Shown here piece after piece: positions 39,323 through 56,274 of a stretch of 56,274 nt of DNA. Source of the DNA: Candidatus Dojkabacteria bacterium (lineage in GTDB: Bacteria > Patescibacteriota > Dojkabacteria > SC72); NCBI GenBank assembly GCA_035271645.1, contig DATERJ010000020.1, positions 1 to 56,274 of the forward strand. The letters are read 5' to 3'. The notes under the pieces were generated by a model, which saw nothing but the letters and a program-made list of their open reading frames with translations, ran no database searches and was not told where the DNA came from. The position numbers were made by a program, and so were the translations under genes. How positions within the stretch are numbered: the first letter of the stretch is position 1; every line of letters starts with the position of its first letter.

Positions 39323-40501
39323 CTAAATCTTTTTTAGATATCTCATTAGTCCCCAACCTTCTACATCTTCGCTGTATTTAATCTTCCCCCATCCATCTTT
39401 TTCTTCAAGAAGAATGAATACAGACCCATCTTTTACTGCATCAATTATCTCACAACTAGCCCATTTACACTTTCTGATATTTAAGAATCCATATTCGGGA
39501 GATACTACTTGTACCAAAACATTGTCTCCTTTAACAACTTTAAACTTTACTTCAAACTCAGACCCTTCAAATGGTTCTCCCTCTGATTCTTGCAGTACAA
39601 ACGATTCCTTAACTTCACCAACGAGAACTTTTGCTTCCAGTTCAAACTCTATTTCTAAATTATCCCCAGGTTTAATCTCCTTGTCTGTAATACTAACCGG
39701 TTTACTAAAGCTATCCCATACTTTGTTTACTGCCAAAGGGCTCTCTTTTCCACCTTTCACAGAGAGATATATTGGTTCATCTTTTACAAACCATACAAAG
39801 TCATTCATATTTTTGTATGTAACCTTCACCTTAATTCTCCCCCCTATTACTGATTCCTTAGGATATTCTAAATTCTCCATTTTTACTTTGTATGGGAGTG
39901 GTTTTGAAGGAGAGGGTTTCCAGTTAGTAAAGGTTTCATTTACTGAGGTACTAAACTCTCCTGTGCTATTTAAAACACTTAACTCGGAGAGTGCTCCTTC
40001 TGATTTTGTAATCTTTAATTTAACTGGTTTTACACTCTTTACATCCCACCTTTCTGAGAGAGAGTTCACAATCTCTTTAAGGGATGACTGGGCTCTGCTT
40101 GTTATATTCCCATTATTTGAAAGATACCCAATGAGGATCACATTCTTTAGGTCTTCTGACGGAACATTTGCACCTTGATACCCTTGTTTCCCTTGATATA
40201 TTGTTCCATTTTCATCAATCATGTATGTATATGGTATATCTGGTAGAGCTAATCTAGTTATGTAGTAATAGTAGAGAGTCTTAACCCAAAGAGAAGGGTT
40301 TCTAGGCATCTCCTGAGCTGAGGATGTTATCTGAGTTATATATATCTTTTGTGGTGATGAGTATATTGTGACTGTTTGATCTGCCAGAGATGTATCAAAC
40401 TTCTGTGTTTCTATGGAATACGAAGAGAAGGCATCTATTTTAGATGGAAAACAAAATATACATATTACGAGAATGGATAGAATTGTAACAATCTTCTTCA
40501 T
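39323..40501 (-). CDS. Secreted protein: degenerate PGRP/amidase_2-like domain, beta-sandwich and C-terminal SH3b domain
   Basis: 392 aa with a signal peptide (ending KIDA). IPYTYMIDENGTIYQGKQGY...NVILIGYLSNNGNITSRAQSSL follows the amidase_2 core pattern, but the zinc-ligand His positions are not evident. The C-terminal GFLNIRK...DGSVFILLEEKDGWGKIKY is SH3_3-like. Confidence 0.55.
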   Translation of the reverse strand: MKKIVTILSILVICIFCFPSKIDAFSSYSIETQKFDTSLADQTVTIYSSPQKIYITQITSSAQEMPRNPSLWVKTLYYYYITRLALPDIPYTYMIDENGTIYQGKQGYQGANVPSEDLKNVILIGYLSNNGNITSRAQSSLKEIVNSLSERWDVKSVKPVKLKITKSEGALSELSVLNSTGEFSTSVNETFTNWKPSPSKPLPYKVKMENLEYPKESVIGGRIKVKVTYKNMNDFVWFVKDEPIYLSVKGGKESPLAVNKVWDSFSKPVSITDKEIKPGDNLEIEFELEAKVLVGEVKESFVLQESEGEPFEGSEFEVKFKVVKGDNVLVQVVSPEYGFLNIRKCKWASCEIIDAVKDGSVFILLEEKDGWGKIKYSEDVEGWGLMRYLKKI

Positions 40502-40523
40502 ACAGAAATTCTAGCAAGAAATA

Positions 40524-41570
40524 TTATTGATTACCAGTTCCAATTTCACTAAACTCCACAATATCTTCTCTTGAAGAGATATTCTTTTGTTCTGTGGCCA
40601 TGATGTACATAATGATGTCTGCAGCATAGACTTCATTATGAAAATCTTTATATCTTGCATCTGCCATAAAAATGTATACAGGATACACAAATCCCCCTGT
40701 GAAATCAGTAAACACATAAGCTTTCTGCATCTCTCTGACATCCAATGAGTCTAATCTTATTGTACCTTTTATATATCTATCTAAATTGTTGTAATTTTCA
40801 CTAATGGTTAGTCTGTCAATATATACCCTTTTATTTGACAACAGCTCTAATTCACTCAACAAAGAATATTGGGAATACACAGAAATACTATCCTTGTTGT
40901 ATAGTAAGATAGAAAGGTTGGTAATATGAGAATCCTTATCTGTTTGAATAATAAAGGCATATGATTCAAGATAAGCTGAACCAAAGGTTTTACCATTTAT
41001 TAAATATTTGCCTTTATAGGTATAACCCCCAAAAGAATTCTTCTCTACCAAAATATTATCAGTATCTATATCCGTAAGCTCAAAATATCGAGTAATAAAA
41101 AGATTAATATCTTCTCTACCCGCTATTAAGAAAGGTGTTGGTAACCCATATGGTGAAGAAACTTTAAAAATACCTGTTTTTTTGTAATATATAAAAGTGT
41201 TACTTTTTGACATCCAAAAATCTACAATCTCTGATGGATATCTAGATTCAGCCTTGTTGTCAAATTTATGCACCAATTCTGCAAGAGGCCGTTTATAAGG
41301 TAAAATACTATAGACACTTAAGAACTCCTCTGTAAACAGGTCTTTCTTAGCAGGAAGAGTAAAATTAGGCAATTTGGTATTCTCCATAAAAGGAGAAACT
41401 ATTTTTTTATCCCTCTGTATAGAAACTGTTTCAGGTTGTTTCTGAGTTAAAATCAAGACAAATACACCTATTAAGATTATAAGAACTAATCCTGTTAGTA
41501 TATATTTTCTATATTTTTGAATAAATTCTTTAATTCTCATATTTTTAATTACAATATCCTGTCTGCGCAC
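40524..41570 (-). CDS. Hypothetical bitopic membrane protein (N-terminal TM helix plus a ~300-aa exodomain)
   Basis: 348 aa. An alternative ATG at 41540 would remove the 26-nt overlap with the upstream gene. No motif was found. The size and topology resemble VirB8/TcpC-type proteins, but this is architecture only. Confidence 0.55.
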   Translation of the reverse strand: MRRQDIVIKNMRIKEFIQKYRKYILTGLVLIILIGVFVLILTQKQPETVSIQRDKKIVSPFMENTKLPNFTLPAKKDLFTEEFLSVYSILPYKRPLAELVHKFDNKAESRYPSEIVDFWMSKSNTFIYYKKTGIFKVSSPYGLPTPFLIAGREDINLFITRYFELTDIDTDNILVEKNSFGGYTYKGKYLINGKTFGSAYLESYAFIIQTDKDSHITNLSILLYNKDSISVYSQYSLLSELELLSNKRVYIDRLTISENYNNLDRYIKGTIRLDSLDVREMQKAYVFTDFTGGFVYPVYIFMADARYKDFHNEVYAADIIMYIMATEQKNISSREDIVEFSEIGTGNQ

Positions 41571-44202
41571 TTTCTAACCTACTATGGAAATATGCAGCAC
41601 ACTGAGGATCTGCACTATCTACCCTACGATAGGCTAAATTAATTAAATCTTCTTCTGTACAACCACCTTCTCGCTTAAATACCTCTGCTGCAGAGGTAGC
41701 TCGCATAGACACACCATTAACTACCACACAATACCAACCGCCATTATTAGACATATAATCAGCCCCCCATTCCCTATATTTTATATCTGTATGATAGTCA
41801 AAATACCATCCTTGAACAAAGTGCATCATCTCATGTCTAAAAATTGTATTATATGCACTTGCTGGAATTCTACTCATCTCACAAAATACTGTCCCCTGAG
41901 CTGCATAACACCAACCACCTAGTATGCGACCACAATAACCTTCTGTACTACCAGCACAGTCATGTAGAGTGACAGAAACACCAAACTCCGAAGCTATCGA
42001 CATAAAAATATCATAAGCTCCTCCCGAATATAGTGGGATATCACCTCCAGGTACTGTTCCTCCTGGACCATCGTAAAATCCAGGACCATCAACAGGAACC
42101 ACATAATCAATATCTCCTAAAACAATCTCATAGGGAGCTACATGACTATATGACCCTAAAGTCTTCATTGTTCCAAAAGGGGAAAGAAGAAGTATAGTAG
42201 GAATAACTATGCCTACTATACTTACCAAAGCAAAAGAAACAACAAAAGTAAGATCTTTCATTAGTGGCCTAGCTATCCTCCTGGCTAAATCGGTCATTCT
42301 GTCAACAAACAAACCAACAGCAGAGCTAGCACCTGTCAGAAAAGACTTAAGTGTGGATGCAACAGCAATTGAAACACCTTTCATGTTTGCTCCTTGTGCA
42401 AACCAATTTTTAACCGTACTTTTGGCCACTTCATCCTTAGCCAGCTTCAATAATATATCTCTAATCTTCTTCGCAACAATCCCACCTAACTTACCAACAG
42501 TCTTTTTGTATAGAGAAGATTCTGTGATTTCTTTCTTAATCTTTTCGATAAGATTAAACTGATTGGCAGTCGCAGTAAGTCTGTTAAACTTCTCAAGTTG
42601 ACCTCTGTTATCCTCGATAAATTTTAATAAAATTGCAAAGTTTGGATCATTTTCTAATGAATGTAGATATGCTACTCCTTCCGCACTAAATAATTTATCC
42701 CAATCTATCTTTCCTGTTAATTTCCCCCCAGAAAAGACTCTAAAATTTTCTATAAAACTCTCCCTTTGATTATACGCTTGTCGCGCATAACCATGGCCTG
42801 TTGTTATGTTTTCAATAATTCCCATTGGGGCAAATCGGTAGTAGAAGTCCATCATACCATCATAGTATGCCTGTTGAAATCTATTCTTCCCCTTCTTGGC
42901 AAGAAATCCCCTATACTCTGTAGCAACCAATTTGCCACTCCTGTCCAAATAAGTTAATCTCATTGTCCTATCCATATCTCTCGGTTGTAAATCCCACATG
43001 GTGTTTTTCTTTGCATCAAAAAAATCTCCATTCATAATCGCCGGTACTACCCTTCCCCCAACAGTATGTTCATAGAGTTGCTGTACCGATCTTATCTGTG
43101 TCTCCATAACACCTAAATTGTAAGCAGTCCTCTGAAGTTTGAAACTCCTTACCTGTGTATTTATCTCTTTTATCTTTACCCCTATCGCTTTTACCCTTTC
43201 TCTACTAGCTTGGTCTGTAGCTTTAGATAAACTCTCTAACTCCTTTCTTAATTTCCCTAAATCTACTTCTCTTCTCATTAGAAACTTCTCAACCCCTCCA
43301 ACTTTGCTATATCTATCACTATTATGCAACACTCCCAAAATATTTTGTGCATCATCATATCCCTGAGCTTGGCGATTGAACCTACTTGCTTGAGCACTAT
43401 CTGGAGCAAATTTTGTGGCATTGTTTCGAGCTTTGGCTGCTTTTCGTGCAAGAGTTACCTTTTCAAATAACAGATGCATATCTCTATTTCCAGCTTCACT
43501 AAAGACATGGCTAAAATCTCTTTGATCTTGTGGTTTTGCCATCTCAGCCTTGTATTTCTGATGGATACTCTGAAGGTTAGTGTAGACTTCCCCACCTTCC
43601 TTATCTCCATAAACAGATTTTAAGTCAGCCTCTGAAATGTTTTGGTAATTCCCCTTTCCCCAAGATTGAGCAGCGAGTTGAATACTTCTAGTATTTGCTT
43701 CATGTACTGCACTCTCATCTTCTGCAGACTTACCCATTCTCAAGAATGTATCTCTTGTATCCGCATCTAGTCCTAACTGAGAGGCCATACCCGCAGCAGT
43801 AAAAGCAGCTAAATCTTTTCCCCAAGCAGTCATTCGCCCTGCTTTCCTAGCTGCCTCTAATTTATCAAAAGCTTTCTTAGTAAGGGTTAAGTCATTATTC
43901 AGTAAGTCTGGAATTTCGCTAACACTTAATCTTACTGAAGTATCTCCACCTTTACCATCAGCAATAACTTCAAACTTGTTTAATCCTAGATCTGCAGCTC
44001 CTTTAATAGCTTCCTCTGTTGTCTCATTTACATACATCAAAGGTTGTTCTAGAACTGCTGCAATAACATCTACATATGGATTACTTGTATCTAAATCACC
44101 TACTTCTACAGGCGTTACTTTGTCCGGTGTTTTTTTGGCTTCTGAAAATATGAAGTCATAGACCGAATCAATTATACTTTCAGATTGTTTTTTTTGTGCC
44201 AT
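41545..44202 (-). CDS. Large membrane protein: ~640-aa helical N-region without a signal peptide, a TM segment, and a Cys-rich C-terminal HExxH (zincin-like) domain
   Basis: 885 aa. The hydrophobic segment is LTFVVSFALVSIVGIVIPTILLLSPFG, and HEMMH lies at 41821-41835. I found no Walker A motif. Confidence 0.6.
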   Translation of the reverse strand: MAQKKQSESIIDSVYDFIFSEAKKTPDKVTPVEVGDLDTSNPYVDVIAAVLEQPLMYVNETTEEAIKGAADLGLNKFEVIADGKGGDTSVRLSVSEIPDLLNNDLTLTKKAFDKLEAARKAGRMTAWGKDLAAFTAAGMASQLGLDADTRDTFLRMGKSAEDESAVHEANTRSIQLAAQSWGKGNYQNISEADLKSVYGDKEGGEVYTNLQSIHQKYKAEMAKPQDQRDFSHVFSEAGNRDMHLLFEKVTLARKAAKARNNATKFAPDSAQASRFNRQAQGYDDAQNILGVLHNSDRYSKVGGVEKFLMRREVDLGKLRKELESLSKATDQASRERVKAIGVKIKEINTQVRSFKLQRTAYNLGVMETQIRSVQQLYEHTVGGRVVPAIMNGDFFDAKKNTMWDLQPRDMDRTMRLTYLDRSGKLVATEYRGFLAKKGKNRFQQAYYDGMMDFYYRFAPMGIIENITTGHGYARQAYNQRESFIENFRVFSGGKLTGKIDWDKLFSAEGVAYLHSLENDPNFAILLKFIEDNRGQLEKFNRLTATANQFNLIEKIKKEITESSLYKKTVGKLGGIVAKKIRDILLKLAKDEVAKSTVKNWFAQGANMKGVSIAVASTLKSFLTGASSAVGLFVDRMTDLARRIARPLMKDLTFVVSFALVSIVGIVIPTILLLSPFGTMKTLGSYSHVAPYEIVLGDIDYVVPVDGPGFYDGPGGTVPGGDIPLYSGGAYDIFMSIASEFGVSVTLHDCAGSTEGYCGRILGGWCYAAQGTVFCEMSRIPASAYNTIFRHEMMHFVQGWYFDYHTDIKYREWGADYMSNNGGWYCVVVNGVSMRATSAAEVFKREGGCTEEDLINLAYRRVDSADPQCAAYFHSRLESAQTGYCN

Positions 44203-44217
44203 TAAGATTTAGCCTTG

Positions 44218-45567
44218 CTATTTAAACATACCACCTAAGAAAGGTACCCTTGATATTCCTTCTTTCAAAGATTTAGATAGATCTATCGATGATTTTGATG
44301 CTGTAATTGGAATTACACCTTTTAGGATTTCTGGTGCGGATGCAGCAGCATATATTGCAACTATTTTGGTAACACCTAGTAGTGAACTAGCTATACTTAT
44401 AGCCTCTCCATCATATCCAGGTATTAAAGTACTAGGGAAAGCCAGAGCAACCCCCTTACTAGAGATATAGTAAGGAAGATTAACAATTGCAAAAGCTAAC
44501 GGAAAAACTAAGGAACTCCTTAGAGCTGACTTAAAAGTATTCAACATCATTGCATCATTTCCTGGTATTGCACTAAACATAATTGCCAAAGGTGCTGTCA
44601 CAACGTTAACCAAAATCCTTAAATATGCTTTTATCAAGGCAACCCATAGCTTGATTGCACCTACCAATATAATTCCTGCAAGGACCAAAGCTGAAATTGA
44701 TAATGCTAGGCCACCAAGAAGCCAACCACCATTTTTTGAATCACTTAATACCAAGCTTATTATCTCCCCAAGACTTAATCCGCTTACAGTACCAGTTTCA
44801 ATAGTTACAGAGCTGTCAGAGAGGATACTTTTAAACAATGCAGTTGGGTCTGTTACATTAACACTCTGTGACAAATCTCCTGCATATAAAACAGATGCTA
44901 TGATATTAGTTACAATGCCTGCAAAATCTATTATTAAACCAATAATCGCAAAGCTAAAGGTTACCAATACTAGTGAAACTATTATCTTAGGAATTGAGTT
45001 CCCAATAGTAACCATCACTTGACCGCCAATCTTATTTCTAAACATAATCATAAAACCAACAATTATCATTACAACAACATAGAAAGCATATGCTATATTT
45101 CGAGTAGCCGACCATAAGGAGGATATACCGGAATCCTGTAAATCCTTATATCCATTAGCATATACAGCATTAGACTCCTTGTAACCTGGCACCCAATCTT
45201 CTGCCAAATGTGCAACAACATCTATTCGAGGCTGACTATTAAATAGTGCCATAATTCCATCCTCAGTTACCCCAACAAGCCCTCTCCGCATTGCCCCCTC
45301 TGGTAAATCTTCAGAGTTTTCTAAAACTTCTGGTGCTATTGCCGTTAACAATACTGATGCTGTTCCATACATAGATTTTCCCGCTAATTTGTCAGCATTC
45401 TGTCCCCCATTTGGAGTGTTTTGTATAACATCAGAAGCTTCATCCATATCTTTCCAACCTTGTTCTAGTGGTATTTTAAGCATTTCTTTCTCCTCCGCAT
45501 ATACGGGAATATTGAAAGCCATAAGGATTGTAAGAAGAACTAAGAGCAGAGAGAAAAATTTTTTCAT
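44218..45567 (-). CDS. Polytopic membrane protein with a cleavable signal peptide (VirB6/TrbL/TcpH-like topology)
   Basis: 449 aa. The signal peptide ends in VYA-EEK, followed by a ~140-aa exodomain and then about 6 or more hydrophobic helices. Confidence 0.6.
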   Translation of the reverse strand: MKKFFSLLLVLLTILMAFNIPVYAEEKEMLKIPLEQGWKDMDEASDVIQNTPNGGQNADKLAGKSMYGTASVLLTAIAPEVLENSEDLPEGAMRRGLVGVTEDGIMALFNSQPRIDVVAHLAEDWVPGYKESNAVYANGYKDLQDSGISSLWSATRNIAYAFYVVVMIIVGFMIMFRNKIGGQVMVTIGNSIPKIIVSLVLVTFSFAIIGLIIDFAGIVTNIIASVLYAGDLSQSVNVTDPTALFKSILSDSSVTIETGTVSGLSLGEIISLVLSDSKNGGWLLGGLALSISALVLAGIILVGAIKLWVALIKAYLRILVNVVTAPLAIMFSAIPGNDAMMLNTFKSALRSSLVFPLAFAIVNLPYYISSKGVALAFPSTLIPGYDGEAISIASSLLGVTKIVAIYAAASAPEILKGVIPITASKSSIDLSKSLKEGISRVPFLGGMFK

Positions 45568-45597: not shown

Positions 45598-47028
45598 TTA
45601 TTCTAATCCATATACACCAGCCGAGATATCAGAAGATTTCTTCACAGATTTCCAATACACATTGAAATTCTCTGGAAAATCCTCCTGATGGGGAGCCGAG
45701 GTAGCAGCTTGCATTTGGTAGTTGGAAAGAAACATAGAAGCATCCCACAAACAATATACACCGAATGAGACACCATCTATACTAATTGCACAATCAGTCG
45801 CAATAAACTGTGTTAATCTCTGATTAGGATTTGTAGACACTTCTTGAAGTCCATCTGCCTCTTGAGGAGATAATATAGATCTGTACCTGTCTGTAAGCAT
45901 TGCATTTCCACAGAGGTCATCTGTACATTCATAGGGATCTCCAAATATTGGAGTCATTTTTATACCAATCCCCCTAGTCCCTATACAAGTTCCCTTTTCT
46001 ACACTTCCATTAACTTCTTCTCCAACTGTACATCTTTTCCATGCAGATGAACTAAACATCTCTTTAAATATTGCCCCTATTTTCGCAGCCTTACCCTGAT
46101 CACAAGCATTGATTACACCTTTATCCCAAACAGTATAGTTTTCATCTTCTACTAAACAAGATTTTGTCTCCTTGTTTTCGTAGTGATCCCCTCCCGGAGC
46201 TTGCCCCATGAGATAACCCCCATACTTAGAGTCTGATGCCAACTTATTGGTTTTCTCAACATTAAAGTCCGATATAGCAAGCTCTCTTGGACAAGGTTTA
46301 CCCTTAACCTTACACTTCGGATTATGTGGTGCATTCCTTATTGTATACTCCCCTGGATTACTTGATGTGATACTCTCCGCACCTCCCAACTTAATCTCTG
46401 CCTCAACCTCAAAAGGAACTCTTTCTGTCTTGTTTAAAGATTTTGAGAACTTTTCCGACTCCTTAGGAGAAAGATTTCTGGTTACATACTCAACATCTAT
46501 CTGTTGTCCATTAGACCTAGACTCTGGAGAATCTTTCCTTATCTGCTTATTACTATCTTGATATGTACTTTGTCCCAAGAATACACTTAAAGGATATGTT
46601 ATCTCTGTGATTACCACCTTTGAATCTTTTGTCACTAGAACTCCCTCGCCAGAATCAACTCCACTCCCACTTGAGAAATCTACCTGCCCTGAACCGTTCG
46701 AACATGTCTTACGAATAGATGCTAGGAGAGTACTTGTTGGGATAGCTCCGCATGTATAATGTTTCACCCCTTTAATAGTTCCAATTGCATCACTACTTAA
46801 ACTTACTGTATCTTCTTGTTTCAGATATACAATATCCTCTTCTGGAATGTCTTCTATTAACTGATTATTCTTTTGACTATCACAATTTTCACATTCTTGA
46901 GGCATTGTCATGTTCACCTCCACCTCACTTACTGCAAATTGCCTTACAATCTTAACTGTAACCAAAGAAAAGCCCATTAAAAGGATTAACAGAAAAATTG
47001 GTTTTTTATTTCTACTCTTTTCTATCAT
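45598..47028 (-). CDS. Hypothetical TM-anchored/secreted Cys-containing protein
   Basis: 476 aa with an N-terminal TM helix and scattered Cys pairs. Its start overlaps the upstream stop (ATGA at 47025-47028). Confidence 0.55.
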   Translation of the reverse strand: MIEKSRNKKPIFLLILLMGFSLVTVKIVRQFAVSEVEVNMTMPQECENCDSQKNNQLIEDIPEEDIVYLKQEDTVSLSSDAIGTIKGVKHYTCGAIPTSTLLASIRKTCSNGSGQVDFSSGSGVDSGEGVLVTKDSKVVITEITYPLSVFLGQSTYQDSNKQIRKDSPESRSNGQQIDVEYVTRNLSPKESEKFSKSLNKTERVPFEVEAEIKLGGAESITSSNPGEYTIRNAPHNPKCKVKGKPCPRELAISDFNVEKTNKLASDSKYGGYLMGQAPGGDHYENKETKSCLVEDENYTVWDKGVINACDQGKAAKIGAIFKEMFSSSAWKRCTVGEEVNGSVEKGTCIGTRGIGIKMTPIFGDPYECTDDLCGNAMLTDRYRSILSPQEADGLQEVSTNPNQRLTQFIATDCAISIDGVSFGVYCLWDASMFLSNYQMQAATSAPHQEDFPENFNVYWKSVKKSSDISAGVYGLE

Positions 47029-48875
47029 ATATCCACAGACATCCTACGTTTACTTTTATTGCTTTTTCTGCCTAAAAGATTAAGCAATACAATGAATATT
47101 ACCAAAATTAGAGCAAGAATTAAAATCCCCCAGAAGCTGTCCATTATTCCTGTCTTGGGAATCCCACCTGTTGTGGTATTATCAGCATTTGTGTCAATCA
47201 CATCTTTTAATGAGTCTGTAAGTCCATAATCACTTAAAGCTGATACTTTGATAGTAGACCCTGACCTAGGAACTTCTTTTAATGAGATATCTAGACCTGC
47301 ACCTTCTAAACCCAACAACTCTTTTGAATGTTTCTCCATCTCAGAGGTGGTATATGGTTGTATGACAAGCAAATCTTCTTCTGTATACTCAAAAAAAGCA
47401 GTACCATCTTCAACTCTGCTATTAGAAATGACAAGAGTACATCTATCTTCTCCAACCTCGGTTAAACAAGAAATCTCCCTACTTTTACCAGAGCTCCCTA
47501 CATTATCTTTATCTTCGATGTAGGCAATGAGAGCCATCTCACCATGGTCTGGAATATTCTCCATTGTCACTTCAACTGTTATGAAGGAAGGAATATCTAT
47601 AATTGGTAGTGTTGATTGTTGGTATTTATTACCATTGTTGTCATATGTATTCTCTCCAGAAACAACCTCAAAGTAGTACTTTGTCTCTTTCTGTAATCTA
47701 TCCAGAACAACACTATGAACATAGTAATCACCAAACCTTCCACTTATCTCCTCATCCCTAGTATCTAATGCTTTCATGTTCAAATTATTAGGATCTACAC
47801 CGTAGTTTACACGCCCTCTCTCTTTCTTAGCAGAGATCCAAATTACTTTAAAACCAGAGTCTGTTACATCAACTACCCTAATTGTCTTAGCTCCTGCAAA
47901 AGATGCCTCTACCTCACCTTTCTCTGTAAGTTCTATCCAATCTAATTGATGTGCAATCCTATATCTCCTATCCAATTCTTCTACCTCTGGTTCATCATCT
48001 GGTATTATCGGTACAACTGGCTCATCATCTGGAATCACCGGTTCAGGTTTATCTGGTACTACTGGTGGTTCTTGATATGGGGCAGCTACAAGTGTTGCTC
48101 GTGGTGGCAACAGGGAATATACATCCCCACTATCAGCCAACCCAAAGTTTTGAGTTGGTTTTAACTCTCCATTGGCATCAAAGAGTTCTTCGTATGTCCC
48201 CTCCACCTTTGCTGTTTTACCTTTACCATCTACTGCAATTACGGTTATATCCGTTTGTTTGTCTATCAAAGGATAGGTGGAGTCAGATATTTTTCTTGAA
48301 TCATTGATTGATATTATCCAACCACCTGTTTTAGATACAACCCCACCTAATGGTGATACTGGATATGTACTTTTATCTGATAGGAATGCGTAGATAAGAA
48401 CATCATCGTTTGAAGTTCCTTTTAGTGTCCCACTTATACTCCCTGGTGTTGGTAAGCCTCCTACTATCGGCATTGTAGAGAACTCTAAATTTTTCCCATC
48501 ACTTGAGCTATACTCTTTACCTTCTGACTTTATCAAAAAACTATACTTTGTATTTGCCTCTAGATTGTCTAATTCCACATAGTGAGTATATGATCTGCTA
48601 GAGGAACGACTGTCTGGGACTTGTTTCTTCTTAGCACCATTCTCTATTGGAATAACATACCCTATGGTACTAGAGTCGGTAGTCCAAGAGATTGATATCA
48701 TACTACTAGAGATATTACTCACTACTACATTTTTTGGTTCTGAACCAACTCCTGCTCTAGATACAACTTGTACTACCTGATATGCTGCAAAAACAAGTAG
48801 TGGCAAGCCTATTAAAAGGATTGCCAAAATAATATTTTGCCTTCTTTGATGTCGAGGTAGATATGCTACTTTCAT
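47025..48875 (-). CDS. Surface protein with two FN3-like modules, a Pro-rich linker and a C-terminal sortase sorting signal (IPKTG)
   Basis: 616 aa with an N-terminal TM helix. FN3-like segments are VVVSNISSSMISISWTTD and IRVVDVTDSGFKVIWIS...VNYG. IPKTG lies at 47148-47162, followed by a ~26-aa hydrophobic stretch and then RKSNKSKRR. Confidence 0.7.
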   Translation of the reverse strand: MKVAYLPRHQRRQNIILAILLIGLPLLVFAAYQVVQVVSRAGVGSEPKNVVVSNISSSMISISWTTDSSTIGYVIPIENGAKKKQVPDSRSSSRSYTHYVELDNLEANTKYSFLIKSEGKEYSSSDGKNLEFSTMPIVGGLPTPGSISGTLKGTSNDDVLIYAFLSDKSTYPVSPLGGVVSKTGGWIISINDSRKISDSTYPLIDKQTDITVIAVDGKGKTAKVEGTYEELFDANGELKPTQNFGLADSGDVYSLLPPRATLVAAPYQEPPVVPDKPEPVIPDDEPVVPIIPDDEPEVEELDRRYRIAHQLDWIELTEKGEVEASFAGAKTIRVVDVTDSGFKVIWISAKKERGRVNYGVDPNNLNMKALDTRDEEISGRFGDYYVHSVVLDRLQKETKYYFEVVSGENTYDNNGNKYQQSTLPIIDIPSFITVEVTMENIPDHGEMALIAYIEDKDNVGSSGKSREISCLTEVGEDRCTLVISNSRVEDGTAFFEYTEEDLLVIQPYTTSEMEKHSKELLGLEGAGLDISLKEVPRSGSTIKVSALSDYGLTDSLKDVIDTNADNTTTGGIPKTGIMDSFWGILILALILVIFIVLLNLLGRKSNKSKRRMSVDI

Positions 48876-48959: not shown

Positions 48960-49229
48960 CTATTCTTCATCCTCTTCGGTTTCCCCCTTTAGACCTGACA
49001 TAAAGCCACTTATTGCTGATATTCCAGATCCTATTCCCCTTATTGGCTTTATTATCATATCATTAACCTCATTTACTGTTCCTCTTACTGTCCCCGTTAT
49101 ATCCTCTACATTCTGTAATGTTTTTCTACTATCTTTCAGGAGCATACCCAGTTGATAGAGTACAAAACATATAAATCCCGCTATGACAGCCACTATTATC
49201 ATCCAATATATTGGTGGTATTGTTTCCAT
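48960..49229 (-). CDS. Small N-terminally TM-anchored coiled protein (DUF948-like by recollection)
   Basis: 89 aa. A TM helix (IIVAVIAGFICFVLYQL) is followed by LLKDSRKTLQNVEDITGTVRGTVNEVNDMI and an acidic tail. Confidence 0.5.
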   Translation of the reverse strand: METIPPIYWMIIVAVIAGFICFVLYQLGMLLKDSRKTLQNVEDITGTVRGTVNEVNDMIIKPIRGIGSGISAISGFMSGLKGETEEDEE

Positions 49230-49242: not shown

Positions 49243-52200
49243 TTAATTTAGTTGAGTTCCACACTCCCCATTCTTCTGCCCTCCTGGGTTCCAGAGAATT
49301 GATTTGCATCCTGATTGTTTAGGATTAAATTCACTTATTCTAATAAAGTAGCCTAAATCTTTAACTATTGGGAAGTCTTGTCCATATGCCTGCCCTTCGG
49401 ATTGTTGATAACCTTGATACATACCTCTATTTGTAGGCCAGAAGGTTACGTTATTAGCTTTTAGCCCCTCTATACTATTAATACTATTTATTAATGACTT
49501 AGCTGTGTATCTTCTACTATGGCCATGAATTCCTACTAGATTCCAACCTGAAGAGAGAGCGATAGGGATAGATTCTTTTACTTTGTAACCTGGTACTGAG
49601 ATTGTGGTATCTTTTTCTGCCATTACTAGGTAACCTCTACCTTGTGCAAAAGAGAAAGTAGCTCCTTTAGTTGCCCCTGCTTCAAAGTCATAAGCAGTAC
49701 CACCTGCCCACTGTCCTCCACTAAAGTATGCAACACGAGAGACTTTTCTTTCTGCTTGATTGACAATCTCTAAGAATCTGTCAGAAGTCAGTTGTTTTGC
49801 ATCTCCTTCTGATGGAACTAAATCAAAGGATATTATATTCACACCTTCTTTAAGTTCATACTCCTGGGCCGTTGTTGTTTGAGATATCTCTAATACAAGG
49901 GCTGAATCCGCTATCGCAATATCCTCATTATCCTGCAAGTTATATGGATCTGATGGGAATTGATACCCAGGGATACCATTTTTCTCAACATAGAACATAC
50001 CTGGATTCTCGGTATCACCAAATACATCAATACCATCACCTAAAGATGTTTCAATACGGTACATACCTTTTTCTGGATAATACAGGAATGGCATCTGTTT
50101 TTCACTCTTTTTACTATTATCTTCTACTCCTAAAACTGAAGATGTAGAAGAAACAAACGTTGCAACACCCCTGACTACACTAGGATGTACAGCACCTTCG
50201 GAAACACATTTAGACAAGGTTGATAGTGTCCAATTACCAGTACCTCTCTCAAGGAATTTATATTTACCTTCGCCCTTCCATTCACACGCATATTCTGTCC
50301 CATCTTCTGTCTTAAGCAAATCCCAATAACCACCAATATTCTTCCCCATCTGTCCATTGTTAGGACAGGACAAATTTTGATATGACTCATGTTTGTATGG
50401 ATAGAAATACGATTTTAAAATTGGACCTGGATATACACAATACATAAATTTAGCAAAGAAGCTATCAACTTGAGCACATTTTCGATAGAAGGGTACGTGT
50501 CCAACTCCCTTTTCCTGACATATAGCTCCCTCCTTACCATCTTTCCTAGGCATCACAGCATAACTATCAACCCCTACCTGACAACAATCATACAGATTGG
50601 TAATCTTTTGTGAGATATACCAATCAGCCTGACTAGAGTGAGGTCCTGCAGAGAATACATATCCTGCATTAGATTCTCCTTTGGCTAACGTAATACTAAC
50701 GGGATATTTACTACCTTTGGCTTTGAAATTAGGAATTTTTTCAGTACAACCTGTAAAGGTTTCATACGCTTCAGAACCTCCATATTTAATACATGCAGCC
50801 CTATCACCTTCAACAGTACTAATATCACCTACGAAATAATTACCTTCACATTCTGCACAGTAAACCTTTGCTGGATCAAACACAGGTTCTAAGCCTAAAT
50901 AGAAGACTTTCTCCTTAGCTTTTGCTAAACATTCCTGATCTGTAGCGTACCTAGAGACAGTTTCTTGGTCTTTACATTTCAACCCTTTAAGTTTCAAACA
51001 GCTTCCTCCACCTGTACCAAGCACAAAGCACTCTTTATCTTCCCATTCATCATCATCTGTATCATCATCCACATTGTCTTCATCATCTGTATCATCATCC
51101 ACATTGTCTTCATCATCTTCTTCTCCATCACAACTGTCTGTTCCATTGTTTGATCTCTGACTCTTAGGACAACAATATGTTTCAAAATCAACATCATCTC
51201 TAATCATATAGTTATTACCTTGCTTATCATACAAACATACACACCCATCTTCATCTAAACATTCCCTCTTCTTGCTTCCCATAACCATTTCATCCTTATC
51301 ATTATCAACTCCTTTCTCTTCACATAATTCTTTGGTGGAGTAACCATTATCAGAATCAACACATTCACAACCATTTGATTTACTTCTCCAAAGCCATTGT
51401 TCTGAACCCGAACATTCCTCTGCAGCAGATACTGACCTCCCTATTTTCTTCCAAAGAGTTTCTAGTAGATCCTTCTTCTCTTCATCTCCATCCCATGTGT
51501 TCTCCCCATTACCTAAAAGAAAAAGAGGATACTCCGCATCCTTTGCATTTACAGTTCTCCTATTCGCAGGTATATGGTTTTCTGCCTGAGGTACAAAGGT
51601 TAGAACTAAGTCTTCTGGTTTAACAATCGAACCATCCTCATTTCTGATATTGCCAATATCTATAGTCCATCCACCATCACTATTTGATACTCCTGACAAT
51701 AAGGGGAATGTTTGCTCCCCTTTCTTCACTCTCAAGAATATTATAGAGTCAAAGTCGGTTTTCTTCACAAGCTGGCCTTCTTCATCATAGTAGAGAGAAT
51801 ATGTAGAACCATATGCTGTATTTGGGACACCTATCTCTTCAAATAACGGCATGGTCTTAGCAGAGAATTTCTCAACACCAAGGAACTCTTTTTCTGAATA
51901 CAAACCACTACTGGTAGAGCTTGTTACCCATCCATTGCCAACTCTGAAATAATAATCCTTATCTGCATCTAAGTCTTGAACTGTAACATGATGAACATAG
52001 TACTTTCCATATTTCTTAACAACAATATCATTGCAGTTATCTTGATTTTCTACACTAACAGTAAAATCTGCAGTTTTTGTTTTAGATACTTCCCTATTAA
52101 ATCTTTCTACACACTCCGTCTGTGCATCCGATACATCCCTATCGTCCACAGCCTTCTTCTTACCTAGTATTGCAAGTGGACCAGGAAGGAAGATATCTTT

Positions 52201-52413
52201 CTCACCGTAGTAGACCACTCCCACCATAGGTTCATCTGTTATCCACGATACTGTGAAAGCAGTATCTGTAACATTAGTGACCCTCACCTTCTGTGGTTTG
52301 AACTTTGCACTAAGATATACCATATACCCTATATACCCAAGTAGTGATACCACCAGTAAAGCAAGAACAACCTTGGAAACTATTTTAAGAGATTTCTGTG
52401 GAATTCTATCCAT
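49243..52413 (-). CDS. Giant surface protein: TM anchor, FN3-like/beta-sandwich module, Cys-rich core with an acidic repeat, and a conserved ~280-aa C-terminal domain
   Basis: 1056 aa. The N-terminal motif is KVRVTNVTDTAFTVSWITDEPMVGVVYYG (52204-52290). The C-terminal 283 aa (49246-50094) are collinear with the C-terminus of the next gene. Confidence 0.75.
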   Translation of the reverse strand: MDRIPQKSLKIVSKVVLALLVVSLLGYIGYMVYLSAKFKPQKVRVTNVTDTAFTVSWITDEPMVGVVYYGEKDIFLPGPLAILGKKKAVDDRDVSDAQTECVERFNREVSKTKTADFTVSVENQDNCNDIVVKKYGKYYVHHVTVQDLDADKDYYFRVGNGWVTSSTSSGLYSEKEFLGVEKFSAKTMPLFEEIGVPNTAYGSTYSLYYDEEGQLVKKTDFDSIIFLRVKKGEQTFPLLSGVSNSDGGWTIDIGNIRNEDGSIVKPEDLVLTFVPQAENHIPANRRTVNAKDAEYPLFLLGNGENTWDGDEEKKDLLETLWKKIGRSVSAAEECSGSEQWLWRSKSNGCECVDSDNGYSTKELCEEKGVDNDKDEMVMGSKKRECLDEDGCVCLYDKQGNNYMIRDDVDFETYCCPKSQRSNNGTDSCDGEEDDEDNVDDDTDDEDNVDDDTDDDEWEDKECFVLGTGGGSCLKLKGLKCKDQETVSRYATDQECLAKAKEKVFYLGLEPVFDPAKVYCAECEGNYFVGDISTVEGDRAACIKYGGSEAYETFTGCTEKIPNFKAKGSKYPVSITLAKGESNAGYVFSAGPHSSQADWYISQKITNLYDCCQVGVDSYAVMPRKDGKEGAICQEKGVGHVPFYRKCAQVDSFFAKFMYCVYPGPILKSYFYPYKHESYQNLSCPNNGQMGKNIGGYWDLLKTEDGTEYACEWKGEGKYKFLERGTGNWTLSTLSKCVSEGAVHPSVVRGVATFVSSTSSVLGVEDNSKKSEKQMPFLYYPEKGMYRIETSLGDGIDVFGDTENPGMFYVEKNGIPGYQFPSDPYNLQDNEDIAIADSALVLEISQTTTAQEYELKEGVNIISFDLVPSEGDAKQLTSDRFLEIVNQAERKVSRVAYFSGGQWAGGTAYDFEAGATKGATFSFAQGRGYLVMAEKDTTISVPGYKVKESIPIALSSGWNLVGIHGHSRRYTAKSLINSINSIEGLKANNVTFWPTNRGMYQGYQQSEGQAYGQDFPIVKDLGYFIRISEFNPKQSGCKSILWNPGGQKNGECGTQLN
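51051..51118 (-). repeat. Perfect 30-nt tandem duplication (plus a partial third copy) encoding EDNVDDDTDD
   Basis: 51051-51080 and 51081-51110 are identical (catcatctgtatcatcatccacattgtctt). The repeat is in frame within an Asp/Glu run. Confidence 0.9.
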
Positions 52414-52435
52414 ACTATAAATAAACTATATTAAT

Positions 52436-55400
52436 TTAATTACATTTACCATTACCTTCACCATCTGGATTCCACCAGATACTTTTACAATCTTTTTTAA
52501 TCTCATTGATCCTTACAAAATACCCTAGGTCTTTACTAATAGGAAAGTCTTGTCCATATTCTTGACCTTCGGATAATTGGAAACCTTGATACATACCTTT
52601 ACTGGTTGGCCAGTATGTTACATTGTTAGCTTTTAGACCTTCTATACTATTTACACTATTTATCAATGATTTAGCTGTATATTGTGTATCATGACCATGT
52701 ACTCCTATGAGATTCCAACCTGAGGAGAAGGCGATGGGGATTGGAGACTGTATTGCATACCCTGGTACGGAAATTGTTGTATCTTTTTCCGCCATTACTA
52801 GGTATCCCTTACCCATTGTCAGAACTTCTTCTTTCTGCCCTTTTATCTCCTTTGTATCAAAGTTATATACTGCACCTCCTTCCCATTGTCCACCCTTAAA
52901 TGTTGCTATACGAGATACATTCTCATCTTTTCTATTTGCAATAGCAAGAAAGTCTGCATATGTTAGTTTAGAATCTACACCACCAACTGATGGAAGTAGA
53001 TTAAACGATATTATATTTATACCTTTCTTAAGAGAGAGATCTAGTAAGGAAGCCACTTTCTCAACCTTTACGAATGATGATCTTGGAACTATTAAATCTT
53101 CATTGTCTTTTGGATTTTGTGGGTCTTCTGGTGATTGATAACCATCTTCTCCATTTCGTTCTTCGTAATATACATAACCACCAGTACCACCTATGGCACT
53201 AGCAGTTCTTCCTTTACCATCAGTAACTTGATATATTCCATCATCTGGGTAGTAGGATATAAAGGAGTGGTTTTCTAGACTTTCTTCAGAACCTTCTGCA
53301 TATGCTTTTGGAATAAAGGGAAGACTACCCCCTCCAGTACCACCACTTGTAATACAATTTTTTAACTCACATATATTATAGTTTCTTTTATTTATCCAGC
53401 CCTCGAGTGTACTCCACTCTCTTAACTTACAAGTCTTTTCCTCATCTGTTCCTGTTTTCTTCCTAGCACAAATTTTCTGAGTGTCACTATCATAACCAAT
53501 CGTAGGAAGCTCTTTATCCTCCAATGCTTTCAAGACAACACTTTCTTTATTAATCTTACACTCATCTTCAGAACAGAACTTTCTATTTCCAATCGGCGCC
53601 ACATGATTCTCTTCCGACTTCTTATCAACCTTACAATCACTACTGGGAGCATTATCTTTAACATCATACGTAAACAACTGTGTCTGACAACAATAGTCTT
53701 TACTTATCACACCATCTCCACAAGAGCACACACTATCCTCGCATCTCCCCAATGTCGAAACATCTGGTGCAGTATCTATAAGATTTTTTGTACATACTAT
53801 TGACTCCAAATAAGCTCCTTGTTTTAATTGACCACTATCATCATAGCAATCTGAAAAATTCTTAGATTCTTTACAACTTGTACCATCGGCTTTGTAACAC
53901 AGGGGTTCCTTACCATCTTTAGCTTTGATACAGTCCGTAAATGTATCATAATATCCACCACTAGTACACCCTGGTGTTCCATAACTACTCTTTAGTATAT
54001 CTTTTGGCTGGAAGCATACATAAACTGTTTTATTAGGATTGTTTTCTTCGATTCCTCTTGCTGGAGTATAAAACCTACTCTTTTTTCCATCCCAACATAG
54101 ATTTTCCTTCTCTTCACTTCTGTAACGACATGATATCTCATCAATATAGCCAATTTTTGAACAATTTGAAAGTGTTGTCTTTATAGTTTTATCATTTCTA
54201 CATCCATCCTCAGATTTCCAACATTCAACTAGAGGATCATCTGCAGCAATAAAGCTACTAGAACACTCACCAACTTTAACAGTATAACACATACCATACC
54301 CTGGAAGAGTGTTAGTAGGACAAGGATATTTATCAGAGATAGAATAGCCATATCGTTCAAACATGAAAGAACCTGTATTACCATTATACACACAATACTT
54401 TGCTGCTCGACAGGCATTCCTTGCTTTAGAACTATCTATTGCTTTTATCGGAATCCCTTTTTCAGCACATGAATCTTCTTCACTTGAACTTTCCGTACAA
54501 GAACAAAGATTATCGCAACAAAATGTTTTTACATTTCCTTTACAAATCACCTTGGCACCTGCTTCATCATTTGCGCTTACAAACACTAGGGTGTTAGCAA
54601 TCTGTGAGAAATTCTGTGAGAAATAATAAGACACCCCAGATATATCGTAACACTCACAATTTTCTTTATAACAATAAAATTGCTTCTCACTTTTACTTGA
54701 GTTACAAGTCGCTGTGGCTTCGTTTAAACTATCTGCATATACAATTTCTCCTTCTAAATCATACTCGAGATTAGAGAGGGCAAGACAAGAGCAACTATCA
54801 TTACATAAAAATGCTTGTTGATCATGTTGACAAGTACTCGTCGCCTCATCTATGTTAAGTCCTACTCTCGGATTATATCCTTTCGAGCAACTAGAACCTG
54901 ATTCCTGCTCATTACAATCACAATCCTCATTACAACAGAATTGCTTCTGCTCATTCTTTACTACCAAACCTCCACAAGCCGGTTTAGCTCCATTGTCATC
55001 CACCTGATTAGTTATTTTCTCCCCACCATTTCCCTCACAATTAGAAGCACACACACATTCATCTGTCTTACATTCCTCACCACATCCAATAACTGGTGCC
55101 CTTTGATTATTACATCCCACCTCAGTCAAAGAATTACCACAAAACACATTATTCACCTGAGCATTGCCACAATAAACATTGTCTTTACTTACATACTCTA
55201 CATAACAGGAATTACACCCTCCACTAACAATAGTACGTGTCATATTTGGTGCTGTTTCATACTTGTCTCCAACCTTGACTATACAACCATTACCTAAAAG
55301 ATGAGTGTTTCCACTAGGATCAGCAACTTCAAGATTACTCCCCTTACACTCCTTTCTGACATTTGTATAGCCAGGACCTGGGTCATCTTTCCTATATATT

Positions 55401-56274
55401 ACAGCACAATCTGTATGTCTCCAATATTCTTTACACTCTGTCTCTTGCTTACTTGCTATTTGCTCTAGCACCTCAGATGAAGTACAATCACTATCACTTG
55501 TGAGAGTATCATCAACTGTCCCATACTCTAGTTTTGGACACAACTTCTGACCATCTTGACACTTCTTTTCAGTATTTGGTTTGCATAATGCACAATCACC
55601 ATTGCTTTCATTACAGTCCTCGCATATTCTCTCATCATCATAATTATAATAGCTATAACAAGCACTATCCTCCACACCTACATCACATGCGGTTTCCCAT
55701 GTTCCAGAACCTCCATACCCACTTAATGCAAATACCTTCGATCTTAAAATATCTAATATACCCCTATGTTGCATTGCAATACTCTGATTTGTAATACCTG
55801 TTACCCTTACAGGTACATAGGTAGGAGGAGTTCTACCATCACTTGTACATCCTCCCGTGGTAGTAATAGTGTCACCAATAGGAGTAACTCTAGCATCTTT
55901 ACAATCATCTTTACTACTGTATTCTCTATACAAACCAGTACATTTCTTCTGATCATACAAACAACTACACCCACCCTCAATATTAATCTTACAACAAGTT
56001 TTACTACCTCCTAAACCTAAACCTTTCTTCCTTTTATCCTGACATTCTCTGAAACTCATAGTACCTGATGTACAAGCTTTAGGACCTAAACATTTATTAT
56101 TCTTAGAATCGTATGTATAGCAATTGTTGTCTACCTTTGGTGGAGGTGGAAGATTAGCTTTACATTGAGCAATAGCATCAGCTTTATTATTCGTATTATA
56201 TTGATTAGGATAATCACCTCTACATGAACCTTCATCTCTATTGGTAATACATTGACAATCAGATGGTCCAGATT
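52436..56274 (-). CDS. Giant cysteine-rich extracellular protein, 5'-truncated by the window edge (more than 1279 codons)
   Basis: The track ORF starts at the ATG at 56059. My hand translation of the same frame from 56060 to 56274 contains no stop and stays Cys-rich (...CQCITNRDEGSCRGDYP...CKANLPPPPKVDNNCYTYDSKNNKCLGPKACTSGT-MSFRE). No signal peptide follows the internal Met. The C-terminal 276 aa (52439-53266) are paralogous to 49246-50094. Confidence 0.8.
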   Translation of the reverse strand, partial: SGPSDCQCITNRDEGSCRGDYPNQYNTNNKADAIAQCKANLPPPPKVDNNCYTYDSKNNKCLGPKACTSGTMSFRECQDKRKKGLGLGGSKTCCKINIEGGCSCLYDQKKCTGLYREYSSKDDCKDARVTPIGDTITTTGGCTSDGRTPPTYVPVRVTGITNQSIAMQHRGILDILRSKVFALSGYGGSGTWETACDVGVEDSACYSYYNYDDERICEDCNESNGDCALCKPNTEKKCQDGQKLCPKLEYGTVDDTLTSDSDCTSSEVLEQIASKQETECKEYWRHTDCAVIYRKDDPGPGYTNVRKECKGSNLEVADPSGNTHLLGNGCIVKVGDKYETAPNMTRTIVSGGCNSCYVEYVSKDNVYCGNAQVNNVFCGNSLTEVGCNNQRAPVIGCGEECKTDECVCASNCEGNGGEKITNQVDDNGAKPACGGLVVKNEQKQFCCNEDCDCNEQESGSSCSKGYNPRVGLNIDEATSTCQHDQQAFLCNDSCSCLALSNLEYDLEGEIVYADSLNEATATCNSSKSEKQFYCYKENCECYDISGVSYYFSQNFSQIANTLVFVSANDEAGAKVICKGNVKTFCCDNLCSCTESSSEEDSCAEKGIPIKAIDSSKARNACRAAKYCVYNGNTGSFMFERYGYSISDKYPCPTNTLPGYGMCYTVKVGECSSSFIAADDPLVECWKSEDGCRNDKTIKTTLSNCSKIGYIDEISCRYRSEEKENLCWDGKKSRFYTPARGIEENNPNKTVYVCFQPKDILKSSYGTPGCTSGGYYDTFTDCIKAKDGKEPLCYKADGTSCKESKNFSDCYDDSGQLKQGAYLESIVCTKNLIDTAPDVSTLGRCEDSVCSCGDGVISKDYCCQTQLFTYDVKDNAPSSDCKVDKKSEENHVAPIGNRKFCSEDECKINKESVVLKALEDKELPTIGYDSDTQKICARKKTGTDEEKTCKLREWSTLEGWINKRNYNICELKNCITSGGTGGGSLPFIPKAYAEGSEESLENHSFISYYPDDGIYQVTDGKGRTASAIGGTGGYVYYEERNGEDGYQSPEDPQNPKDNEDLIVPRSSFVKVEKVASLLDLSLKKGINIISFNLLPSVGGVDSKLTYADFLAIANRKDENVSRIATFKGGQWEGGAVYNFDTKEIKGQKEEVLTMGKGYLVMAEKDTTISVPGYAIQSPIPIAFSSGWNLIGVHGHDTQYTAKSLINSVNSIEGLKANNVTYWPTSKGMYQGFQLSEGQEYGQDFPISKDLGYFVRINEIKKDCKSIWWNPDGEGNGKCN
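54392..54949 (-). repeat. Four tandem ~45-50-aa cysteine modules within the giant protein (protein-level repeat)
   Basis: Modules begin at aa ~371-556: QFCCNEDCDC..., AFLCNDSCSC..., QFYCYKENCEC... and TFCCDNLCSC.... Each is followed by ~30 residues ending in A(T/R)xxC. Confidence 0.6.

Follow-up and report, generated by a model that had tools for sequence, protein, structure and literature searches.

What is encoded by a 17-kb cluster of nine envelope-protein genes that contains no recognisable energising enzyme? The question arises at positions 39323-56274 of contig DATERJ010000020.1 (assembly GCA_035271645.1), a stretch of 56,274 nucleotides from Candidatus Dojkabacteria bacterium that was analysed whole and is called the window throughout. 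An earlier note, written from the DNA letters alone, had taken the cluster for a candidate undescribed surface or secretion system. Patescibacteria account for much of bacterial diversity and are apparently host-attached, and it is for this reason that their host-contact machinery matters. Our best reading is that the cluster represents, in Dojkabacteria, the membrane and cell-wall portion of a monoderm, MPF-FATA-like type IV secretion system (T4SS), separated from its VirB4 motor and its VirB2-like pilins. Stated in full, as a split variant of the patescibacterial T4SS envelope module in which the pilus is missing and giant Cys-rich proteins form the outer surface, this reading has in our view somewhat better than an even chance of being right.

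Patescibacterial T4SSs are MPF-FATA-like, chromosomal and relaxase-free, with genes often dispersed over more than one locus (PMC12102498; PMC12857230), and in Southlakia epibionticum, the one tractable species, the T4SS is essential according to the account that a review gives of Wang et al. 2023 (PMC12857230). To call the cluster undescribed was thus an overstatement, as it is already partly described in the form of these published systems (PMC12102498, PMC12857230), of which it would be a divergent, split variant.

A conserved core-genome locus without an ATPase

Nine minus-strand open reading frames (ORFs) fill 39323-56274, each where the earlier note had placed it, with intergenic spacings of 22, -26, 15, 30, -4, 84, 13 and 22 nt in ascending coordinates; the -4 spacing is an ATGA overlap at 47025-47028, and uvrD/pcrA lies 9 nt beyond the last cluster gene. 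All nine products are membrane or exported proteins, recognisable by a signal peptide, a transmembrane (TM) anchor or a sorting signal, and the topologies first assigned to them agree with a simple hydropathy scan and with the sequences. Searches of all nine proteins against Pfam, NCBIfam and PHROGs gave no match for the 348-, 885-, 449- and 476-aa proteins or for the giant at the contig edge, and no match to a P-loop family for any product. Two loose Walker-A-like strings occur, both in extracytoplasmic stretches, and the claim that the cluster holds no Walker A ATPase stands.

A genome scan with one genome per species returned 174 loci, 80 of which were kept, and synteny was compared in 84 loci. 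The cluster is also carried by JBMNHB010000001.1 (748 kb) and Ga0334889_1000001 (760 kb), from complete or near-complete Dojkabacteria genomes. The 449-aa protein has hundreds of close homologues, none of them a named protein, whose named sources are almost always Candidatus Dojkabacteria. About 78 of the 84 related loci, from Dojkabacteria (WS6, Patescibacteria) and reaching down to 33% identity of the 449-aa protein, keep one gene order: giant gene or genes, 89-aa protein, FN3 protein, 476-aa protein, 449-aa protein, 885-aa protein, (348-aa protein), 392-aa protein, UvrD, G5(-) and TPR. The chromosomal position is constant as well, between PIN/RsmE/RsmB and UvrD. Orthologues of the 1056-aa giant, 900-1400 aa long, head the cluster in relatives, the close relative L005 likewise has two giants, and an ORF of 313-363 aa, often missed by BLAST, occupies the 348-aa position in about 44 of 49 loci; locus L025 lacks the 348-aa gene. 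Because the order recurs in so many related loci, the cluster is more than a chance arrangement. It is a bounded, conserved, single-copy core-genome locus without an ATPase, and the operon-like packing first seen in a single sequence is now backed by recurrence of the same order in related Patescibacteria, a question that the earlier note had raised.

A large VirB6-like family in patescibacterial T4SS loci

At the core of the cluster lies a 449-aa polytopic membrane protein (44218-45567, minus strand), with a signal peptide, an outer region of about 130 aa and then 5-6 TM helices. Its AlphaFold2 (AF2) model, built from 25 sequences, is all-helical, with a predicted local distance difference test score (pLDDT) of 68. 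When this model was compared with PDB by Foldseek, only the TrwI/VirB6 chains of the R388 T4SS stalk reached a probability of 0.90-0.94, over alignments of about 305-317 columns at 14-16% identity. The likeness to TcpH/VirB6 proposed in the earlier note is borne out to the extent that TrwI/VirB6 ranks first by probability, though with weak absolute scores. Searches by sequence gave no match for the 449-aa protein in Pfam or NCBIfam or to a PrgH profile, no match in PDB for either of two family profiles, and no significant Pfam match for any of ten distant family members. An exhaustive profile search recovered 3,614 clusters at 50% identity with E<=1e-3, and 2,897 with E<=1e-10.

The surroundings of the homologues point in the same direction as the fold. 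All four distant members that were looked up lie beside PF18895 T4SS_pilin arrays; one of these loci has in addition an M23 protein of 1473 aa and a weak hit to PrgI, another encodes a 1187-aa protein with a terminal SLT_3 lysozyme-like domain, and one of the organisms is Woesebacteria-like, i.e. from Microgenomatia. A metagenome scan with distant members as queries yielded 80 further loci. Pilin-like arrays (at least two small two-TM ORFs) stand upstream of the VirB6-like gene in 30 of the 36 metagenome loci with enough upstream sequence, and 7 of 40 contain VirB4 as a 560-660-aa ORF on the same strand, 5-9 kb downstream of the VirB6-like gene; these ORFs match P-loop_TraG, AAA_10 and DUF87, one of the seven also CagE_TrbE_VirB. 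We regard this gene context as good evidence that the 449-aa family is a component of patescibacterial T4SSs and, together with the fold match, it indicates that the family is probably their VirB6. The resemblance to Gram-positive T4SSs, which had been called loose, has become stronger through the VirB6-like fold and through homologues in loci with pilin arrays and VirB4.

A published survey that worked outward from virB4 detected VirB6 and VirB8 poorly in several patescibacterial classes and found VirB6 scarce or absent in Microgenomatia and Gracilibacteria, which its authors blame on divergence (PMC12102498). The large unannotated VirB6-like family described here is a good candidate to fill that gap.

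The VirB4-holding metagenome loci (L136, L140, L162-L164, L129 and L147) share a layout of 5-9 pilin-like genes, a secreted Cys-rich protein and the VirB6-like gene, then a 1-3-TM protein, a 240-300-aa protein and VirB4; in most of them a 560-1330-aa cytoplasmic protein is encoded on the opposite strand between the VirB6-like gene and the 1-3-TM protein. The large opposite-strand protein is TM-free and has few Cys; related proteins in three loci (L086-L088) appear coiled-coil by eye and have no Pfam match, and there is no Dojkabacteria counterpart.

A putative membrane-anchored hydrolase with exchangeable outer domains

The gene that follows the VirB6-like gene (41545-44202, minus strand) encodes an 885-aa bitopic protein, a putative peptidoglycan metallopeptidase, with a cytoplasmic part of about 640 aa, a single TM segment at residues 647-680 and an outer HEMMH motif at residue 790. 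The N-terminal region is conserved in orthologues, has neither signal peptide nor Walker A motif, and opens in the window with the motif IDSVYDFIF. All eight Cys lie after residue 749, beyond the TM segment, which fits an outward-facing C-terminal domain and upholds the original description of a TM segment followed by an extracytoplasmic HEMMH domain.

The identity of that outer domain varies from one orthologue to another. In 13 of 24 it is M23/LytM, with profile matches to the ShyA endopeptidase (8.7e-5) and, on our reading of the alignment, HxxxD and HxH motifs; in 11 of 24, the window among them (41545-42150), it is Cys-rich and bears HExxH and EWGAD, with matches at the level of motifs only, to the zincin region of collagenase and to Pfam eCIS_core (E 0.12). 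A third outer domain, Cys-rich and about 490 aa long, is found in loci L021 and L027; it looks CHAP-like by eye, which is unconfirmed, having no match in PDB and a BLAST hit of E 0.06 to the C-terminal part of PrgK, where we presume the CHAP domain of that protein to lie. The 885-aa family would accordingly carry a putative membrane-anchored peptidoglycan hydrolase, with the HExxH...EWGAD variant of the window assigned by position and motif only. In other lineages we counted 26 large proteins encoded downstream of the VirB6-like gene whose first TM segment comes after residue 400, and wall hydrolase domains were present in 14 of the 24 that were scanned (M23 in 12, Amidase_2 and CHAP in one each). 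The 885-aa protein belongs to this recurrent class, as judged from predicted topology and domain content: a large cytoplasmic domain, a TM segment and an outer wall hydrolase. Such a pattern implies an exchange of wall-hydrolase domains (M23, HExxH and the third type) while the cytoplasmic and TM scaffold stays the same.

Some Dojkabacteria (L079, L081, L082 and L084) have a second, ATPase-less mini-module. In it a Cys-rich exoprotein of 233 aa accompanies one or two paralogues of the VirB6-like protein (590-900 aa, with a Cys-rich insert) and a protein of 630-770 aa that is paralogous to the N-terminal domain of the 885-aa protein, has a TM segment at its C-terminus and lacks a hydrolase domain. 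The genes near the module in L081 include those for YidC, a KH/R3H protein and a Wzy_C protein.

Beside the hydrolase gene lies that of the 348-aa bitopic protein (40524-41570, minus strand), with an N-terminal TM segment and alpha+beta outer domains. The alignment of orthologues favours a start at ATG 41540 over GTG 41570, and this likely true start removes the 26-nt overlap with the 885-aa gene. Relatives found with a hidden Markov model in metagenome loci immediately follow the large hydrolase gene in all five cases. An AF2 model from 7 sequences has a pLDDT of 49, with residues 94-225 usable, and the top structural matches of this low-confidence model are YycH (E 1.7e-4), the C-terminal domain of YpeB, and YycI, in place of the TcpC/VirB8 assignment that had been suggested. 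By sequence profile the family finds nothing in PDB, and hhalign against PrgL aligns the TM segment only. Tentatively, we take the modelled protein to be a PepSY- or YycI-like partner of the peptidase. At L065:11927-13372 a 481-aa fusion combines the N-terminal half of the 348-aa family with the Ig-like/SH3b half of the 392-aa family, which suggests that the two proteins may act together.

Surface and wall proteins

The truncated giant Cys-rich surface protein (52436-56274, minus strand; 1278 aa visible, 89 Cys) and the 1056-aa surface protein (49243-52413, minus strand) share a C-terminal domain of 285 aa that is 53% identical. They are paralogous there and in the N-terminus with its TM anchor and FN3 domain, while elsewhere they have a Cys-rich composition alone in common, and the claim that the giants are paralogues holds for these two regions and fails for the remainder. 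In the 1056-aa protein the TM anchor spans residues 7-36, Pfam Pur_ac_phosph_N/fn3 matches residues 39-166 and the middle contains 30 Cys. The shared C-terminal domain is kept in about 31 loci; it has no match in a PDB profile search, and Pfam searches with the whole proteins gave none for it. The 89-aa protein (48960-49229, minus strand) has a single N-terminal TM segment, a helical part and an acidic tail; it is weakly DUF948/YtxH-like (Pfam DUF948 at E 0.0036, below the cut-off) and is conserved in position in 59 loci. A YtxH gene also lies near the VirB6-like gene in L087.

The 616-aa protein (47025-48875, minus strand) is built as a wall-spanning FN3 protein: a signal/TM segment, an FN3 domain, a Pro-rich linker, a second FN3-like domain, IPKTG at residue 572, a TM segment and a basic tail, with Pfam matches to fn3 and Pur_ac_phosph_N. 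This agrees with the double-FN3 protein with a sorting signal that the first inspection had recognised. It is the one product of the nine that qualifies as a sortase-dependent surface protein, as the other eight have no sorting signal. Two forms exist among orthologues, one of about 600-670 aa with xPxTG, TM segment and basic tail, and an anchorless one of about 520-545 aa with a conserved LSDYG(I/V) end. Because xPxTG is present in only 26 of 59 orthologues, the remainder ending in LSDYG(I/V), sortase anchoring is specific to one clade. A sortase gene outside the cluster (11194-11982, plus strand; Pfam Sortase, 4.9e-23) possibly encodes the anchoring enzyme for the IPKTG protein.

The 476-aa membrane-anchored exoprotein (45598-47028, minus strand), encoded directly upstream of the VirB6-like gene, has 14 Cys, about ten of them invariant, and has no Pfam match, no PDB profile match and no detectable relatives. 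In 16 metagenome loci a secreted Cys-rich protein of 367-1044 aa is encoded immediately upstream of the VirB6-like gene, and the 476-aa protein occupies the place that such proteins have in other patescibacterial T4SS loci.

The 392-aa secreted protein (39323-40501, minus strand) has a PGRP-like domain, an Ig-like middle and a C-terminal SH3b domain. Its profile matches PGRP-SD (3.3e-4), PGRP-I-beta (4.4e-4) and an autolysin SH3b (3.5e-5) in PDB as well as Pfam SH3_3, in keeping with the PGRP-like/SH3b wall-binding protein proposed at the outset. On our reading, the family consensus has ITQ and GAN, i.e. Q and N, where catalytic PGRPs have two Zn-binding His, positions that we placed from the known Amidase_2 motifs. 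The part of hydrolase, which the earlier note had given to the 392-aa protein, therefore falls instead to the 885-aa family with its M23 or HExxH domain; the 392-aa protein probably binds the wall rather than cutting it, to judge by these substitutions.

The start of the operon and the remainder of the window

The edge gene at 52436-56274 has no upstream stop and is open to the right contig edge, as had been seen. Its N-terminus had been placed outside the window, and here our analysis departs from the earlier one. At the left end, on the minus strand at 1-195, a translation that begins MKGKLNKVAKV...RVSNVTDSAFTVSWVTDEPMVGVVY, with a start codon, a TM anchor and an FN3-like beginning, is almost identical to the N-terminus of the 1056-aa protein, and its neighbours PIN/RsmE/RsmB/PNPase (740-5055) are the genes that lie upstream of the giant gene in relatives. 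The segment could belong to a further paralogue; it is probably the missing N-terminus of the edge gene, and the two contig ends most likely meet within the same giant gene. If the ends do meet there, the operon start is effectively in view and there is no ATPase upstream of it. The proposal that ATPases lie just beyond the right edge is rejected in view of the relatives, in which the cluster starts at the giant gene beside housekeeping genes. The 56-kb contig carries both flanks of the relatives' cluster, PIN/RsmE/RsmB/PNPase upstream and UvrD/G5/TPR downstream, an arrangement that could stem from a rearrangement of the genome or from an assembly that was circularised or wrongly joined.

The remainder of the window is an ordinary small-genome chromosome, with genes for PNPase, a RuBisCO large-subunit homologue, IF2, NusA, DnaJ, sortase, AlaRS, LepA, RecF and others. 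tRNA and Rfam scans gave no match, and scans for promoters and terminators returned the same counts as in shuffled sequences. The RuBisCO homologue (5515-6945, minus strand) lies between PNPase and IF2, which adjoin each other without RuBisCO in relatives such as L027; from the literature we presume it to be of the form II/III type of the candidate phyla radiation. The sortase gene heads a group at 11194-15828 that continues with a solute-binding protein and a 791-aa Big-domain protein. This region and 21545-24186 also contain further surface-protein genes, for a protein of 594 aa that matches DUF11 weakly, a 136-aa FN3-like protein (Pur_ac_phosph_N) and a 150-aa protein with a He_PIG Ig domain.

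Discussion

Read as the envelope part of a split patescibacterial T4SS, the cluster can be assembled into a working model in which the VirB6-like 449-aa protein would oligomerise into a membrane platform or channel and the outer metallopeptidase of the 885-aa protein would open the peptidoglycan locally, its 640-aa cytoplasmic domain serving as a docking site. The 348-aa protein, with its resemblance to YycI and PepSY proteins, would hold or restrain the peptidase, the PGRP/SH3b protein would fix the assembly to the wall, and the sortase-anchored FN3 protein would span that wall. The 476-aa protein and the giant Cys-rich proteins, held by N-terminal TM anchors, would form an outer contact surface that replaces the pilus and binds the host cell. 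Energy, if transport occurs, would come from a VirB4 encoded elsewhere in the genome. We infer, as the earlier note did, that the cluster may export and display giant proteins.

A number of results weigh against this reading. A VirB4-family ATPase is the hallmark of all T4SSs, and no VirB4-type ORF occurs in the fetched flanks of 53 Dojkabacteria loci or in the 56-kb window. The same holds for VirD4, PrgI/VirB3, TrsD and pilin genes in the window and within 10 kb of the cluster in the 53 loci, where the only P-loop ORFs encode a translational GTPase or UvrD. Just 1 of 45 Dojkabacteria loci has at least two small two-TM ORFs upstream, T4SS_pilin has no hit in the Pfam data for L001-L004 or in the window, and neither the cluster nor the window has a Pfam or NCBIfam match to a coupling protein (VirD4/TcpA), VirB3/PrgI or a relaxase. 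The match of the 449-aa model to VirB6 is weak in absolute terms (E 0.2-0.3 and template-modelling scores of 0.42-0.48, at the pLDDT of 68), and no VirB8-like structure is among the top 50 matches of the 348-aa model, itself of pLDDT 49 from 7 sequences. Profile comparison by hhalign with PrgH, PrgK and PrgL of pCF10 gave nothing beyond TM segments, and in the T4SS loci of other lineages the only detectable relatives of the cluster's products are the 449-aa family and weak 348-aa hits. Finally, every product could be placed by Sec, YidC or sortase alone, and the data do not require a translocation function.

As to the motor, Table S1 of a published survey records the Dojkabacteria assemblies GCA_003452355.1 and GCA_003453845.1 as VirB4-positive (PMC12102498), and because of these two assemblies we consider that VirB4 is probably encoded elsewhere in the Dojkabacteria genome. 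The absence of an energising enzyme reported from the window thus holds for the locus and probably not for the genome. Since the hallmark VirB4 is missing from the locus, we file the cluster as a T4SS-related variant and not as a T4SS. Type VII secretion of the Firmicutes type was considered and rejected, with no match to an FtsK/SpoIIIE-type EssC or to WXG100 in Pfam and NCBIfam and no P-loop ORF in the loci.

The absent motor lends itself to another explanation, in which the cluster derives from a T4SS and has become a motor-free adhesin platform: Sec/YidC and sortase would assemble a fixed host-attachment organelle, the VirB6-like protein would be a membrane base only, and nothing would be translocated. 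Much of what we observe agrees with this, including the signal peptide, TM anchor or sorting signal on every product, the lack of an ATPase in all 53 loci, the giant Cys-rich and FN3 proteins where a pilin array would be, the setting among housekeeping genes, and the second mini-module of some genomes, which is also ATPase-free. We nonetheless think it rather unlikely, as it is hard to see what the strongly conserved 640-aa cytoplasmic domain would do in a structure that is wholly external, the 449-aa family is linked to VirB4 in other lineages, and Dojkabacteria reportedly keep VirB4 (PMC12102498).

The cluster might also serve the cell's own wall, as a complex for peptidoglycan remodelling or envelope growth in the manner of FtsEX-directed M23 hydrolases or of autolysin control by WalK/YycH/YycI, with the surface proteins as unrelated neighbours. 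YycH, YycI and YpeB partner wall-hydrolase regulation in Firmicutes, and their appearance among the matches of the 348-aa model, together with the predicted wall metallopeptidase of the 885-aa protein, the predicted peptidoglycan binding of the 392-aa protein and a single-copy core-genome position beside housekeeping genes, would suit such a role. That 348-aa model is, however, of low confidence, the polytopic protein has its relatives beside pilin arrays and VirB4 and not beside division genes, no histidine kinase or FtsE-like ATPase was found, and the surface-protein genes share the orientation and tight spacing of the other cluster genes and are conserved along with them throughout the class, all of which makes a wall-growth complex improbable. 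Still further down in our estimation, and barely credible, is a prophage tail or lysis module or a part of an integrated conjugative element. Long proteins with terminal M23 domains recall phage tape-measure proteins, and SH3b and PGRP-like domains are known from endolysins; yet the best PHROGs hit for the nine proteins has an E of 0.025, leaving nothing significant, integrase, relaxase, capsid and terminase genes are absent, and tblastn with the 449-aa protein found no match in 50,697 phage or 72,556 plasmid records. A fixed chromosomal position in about 78 genomes, down to 33% identity, and a GC content equal to that of the rest of the window also speak against mobile origin, in line with the initial report of no phage structural gene or integrase.

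Returning to the split T4SS envelope module, its main value lies in a large unrecognised VirB6-like family and in pilins replaced by giant adhesin-like proteins. It would mean that T4SS parts can persist as a conserved core-genome locus without motor or pilins, and it singles out the giant Cys-rich proteins, the FN3 stalk protein and the PGRP/SH3b wall binder as candidates for the surface with which an uncultivated class touches its host. A bolder proposal, which we put forward as possible though on balance doubtful, is that a T4SS has been turned into a pilus-less, motor-independent contact organelle, with a VirB6-like base, a tethered peptidase with interchangeable outer domains, wall-binding and wall-spanning proteins and a giant disulfide-rich host-binding tip, and that the 449-aa family is the "missing" VirB6 of Microgenomatia, Dojkabacteria and other Patescibacteria, with thousands of members unseen by current T4SS profiles.

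Comparison with known systems

The R388 TrwI/VirB6 stalk (PDB 7o3v, 8rt9) provides the highest Foldseek probability for the 449-aa model, aligned over a helical polytopic fold, in a diderm system unlike the monoderm host of the cluster; there a VirB5 pentamer sits on VirB6, whereas the cluster has the unrelated 476-aa Cys-rich protein upstream. Bacillus YycH and YycI, regulators of WalK, and YpeB, a PepSY protein and partner of SleB, resemble the 348-aa model in being N-terminally anchored, in their tandem alpha+beta domains and in their ties to wall-hydrolase functions, at a pLDDT of 49, TM-scores of 0.2-0.28 and no sequence similarity; a WalK-type kinase is absent from the cluster.

The pCF10 Prg/Pcf system of Enterococcus faecalis offers a parallel in gene order, running from the prgA/B/C adhesins with LPXTG through prgH for a polytopic VirB6-like protein, [prgI, prgJ] and the 871-aa hydrolase prgK to the bitopic prgL, although prgI (VirB3), prgJ (VirB4) and pcfC (VirD4) have no counterpart in the cluster and sequence similarity is not detectable by profile comparison. 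The hydrolase domains of PrgK follow an N-terminal TM segment, whereas 640 cytoplasmic residues precede that of the 885-aa protein. pCF10 transfers DNA, which nothing in the cluster suggests.

Closest are the patescibacterial T4SSs (Southlakia epibionticum ML1 locus; Quinonero-Coronel et al. 2025, PMC12102498), with which the cluster shares a monoderm host, a chromosomal location and the lack of a relaxase. Their loci contain a VirB6-like protein of the same family, missed by standard VirB6, TrbL and PrgH profiles, together with VirB2-like pilin arrays and VirB4, and large membrane-anchored M23, lysozyme or CHAP hydrolases are encoded nearby. VirB4, TrsD, PrgI/VirB3, VirD4 and the pilin array are missing from the Dojkabacteria locus, and in the window's clade an HExxH domain replaces M23. 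The Dojkabacteria locus, for its part, has giant Cys-rich proteins that are TM-anchored and end in a C-terminal domain of their own, a sortase substrate with FN3 domains, and a PGRP/SH3b protein.

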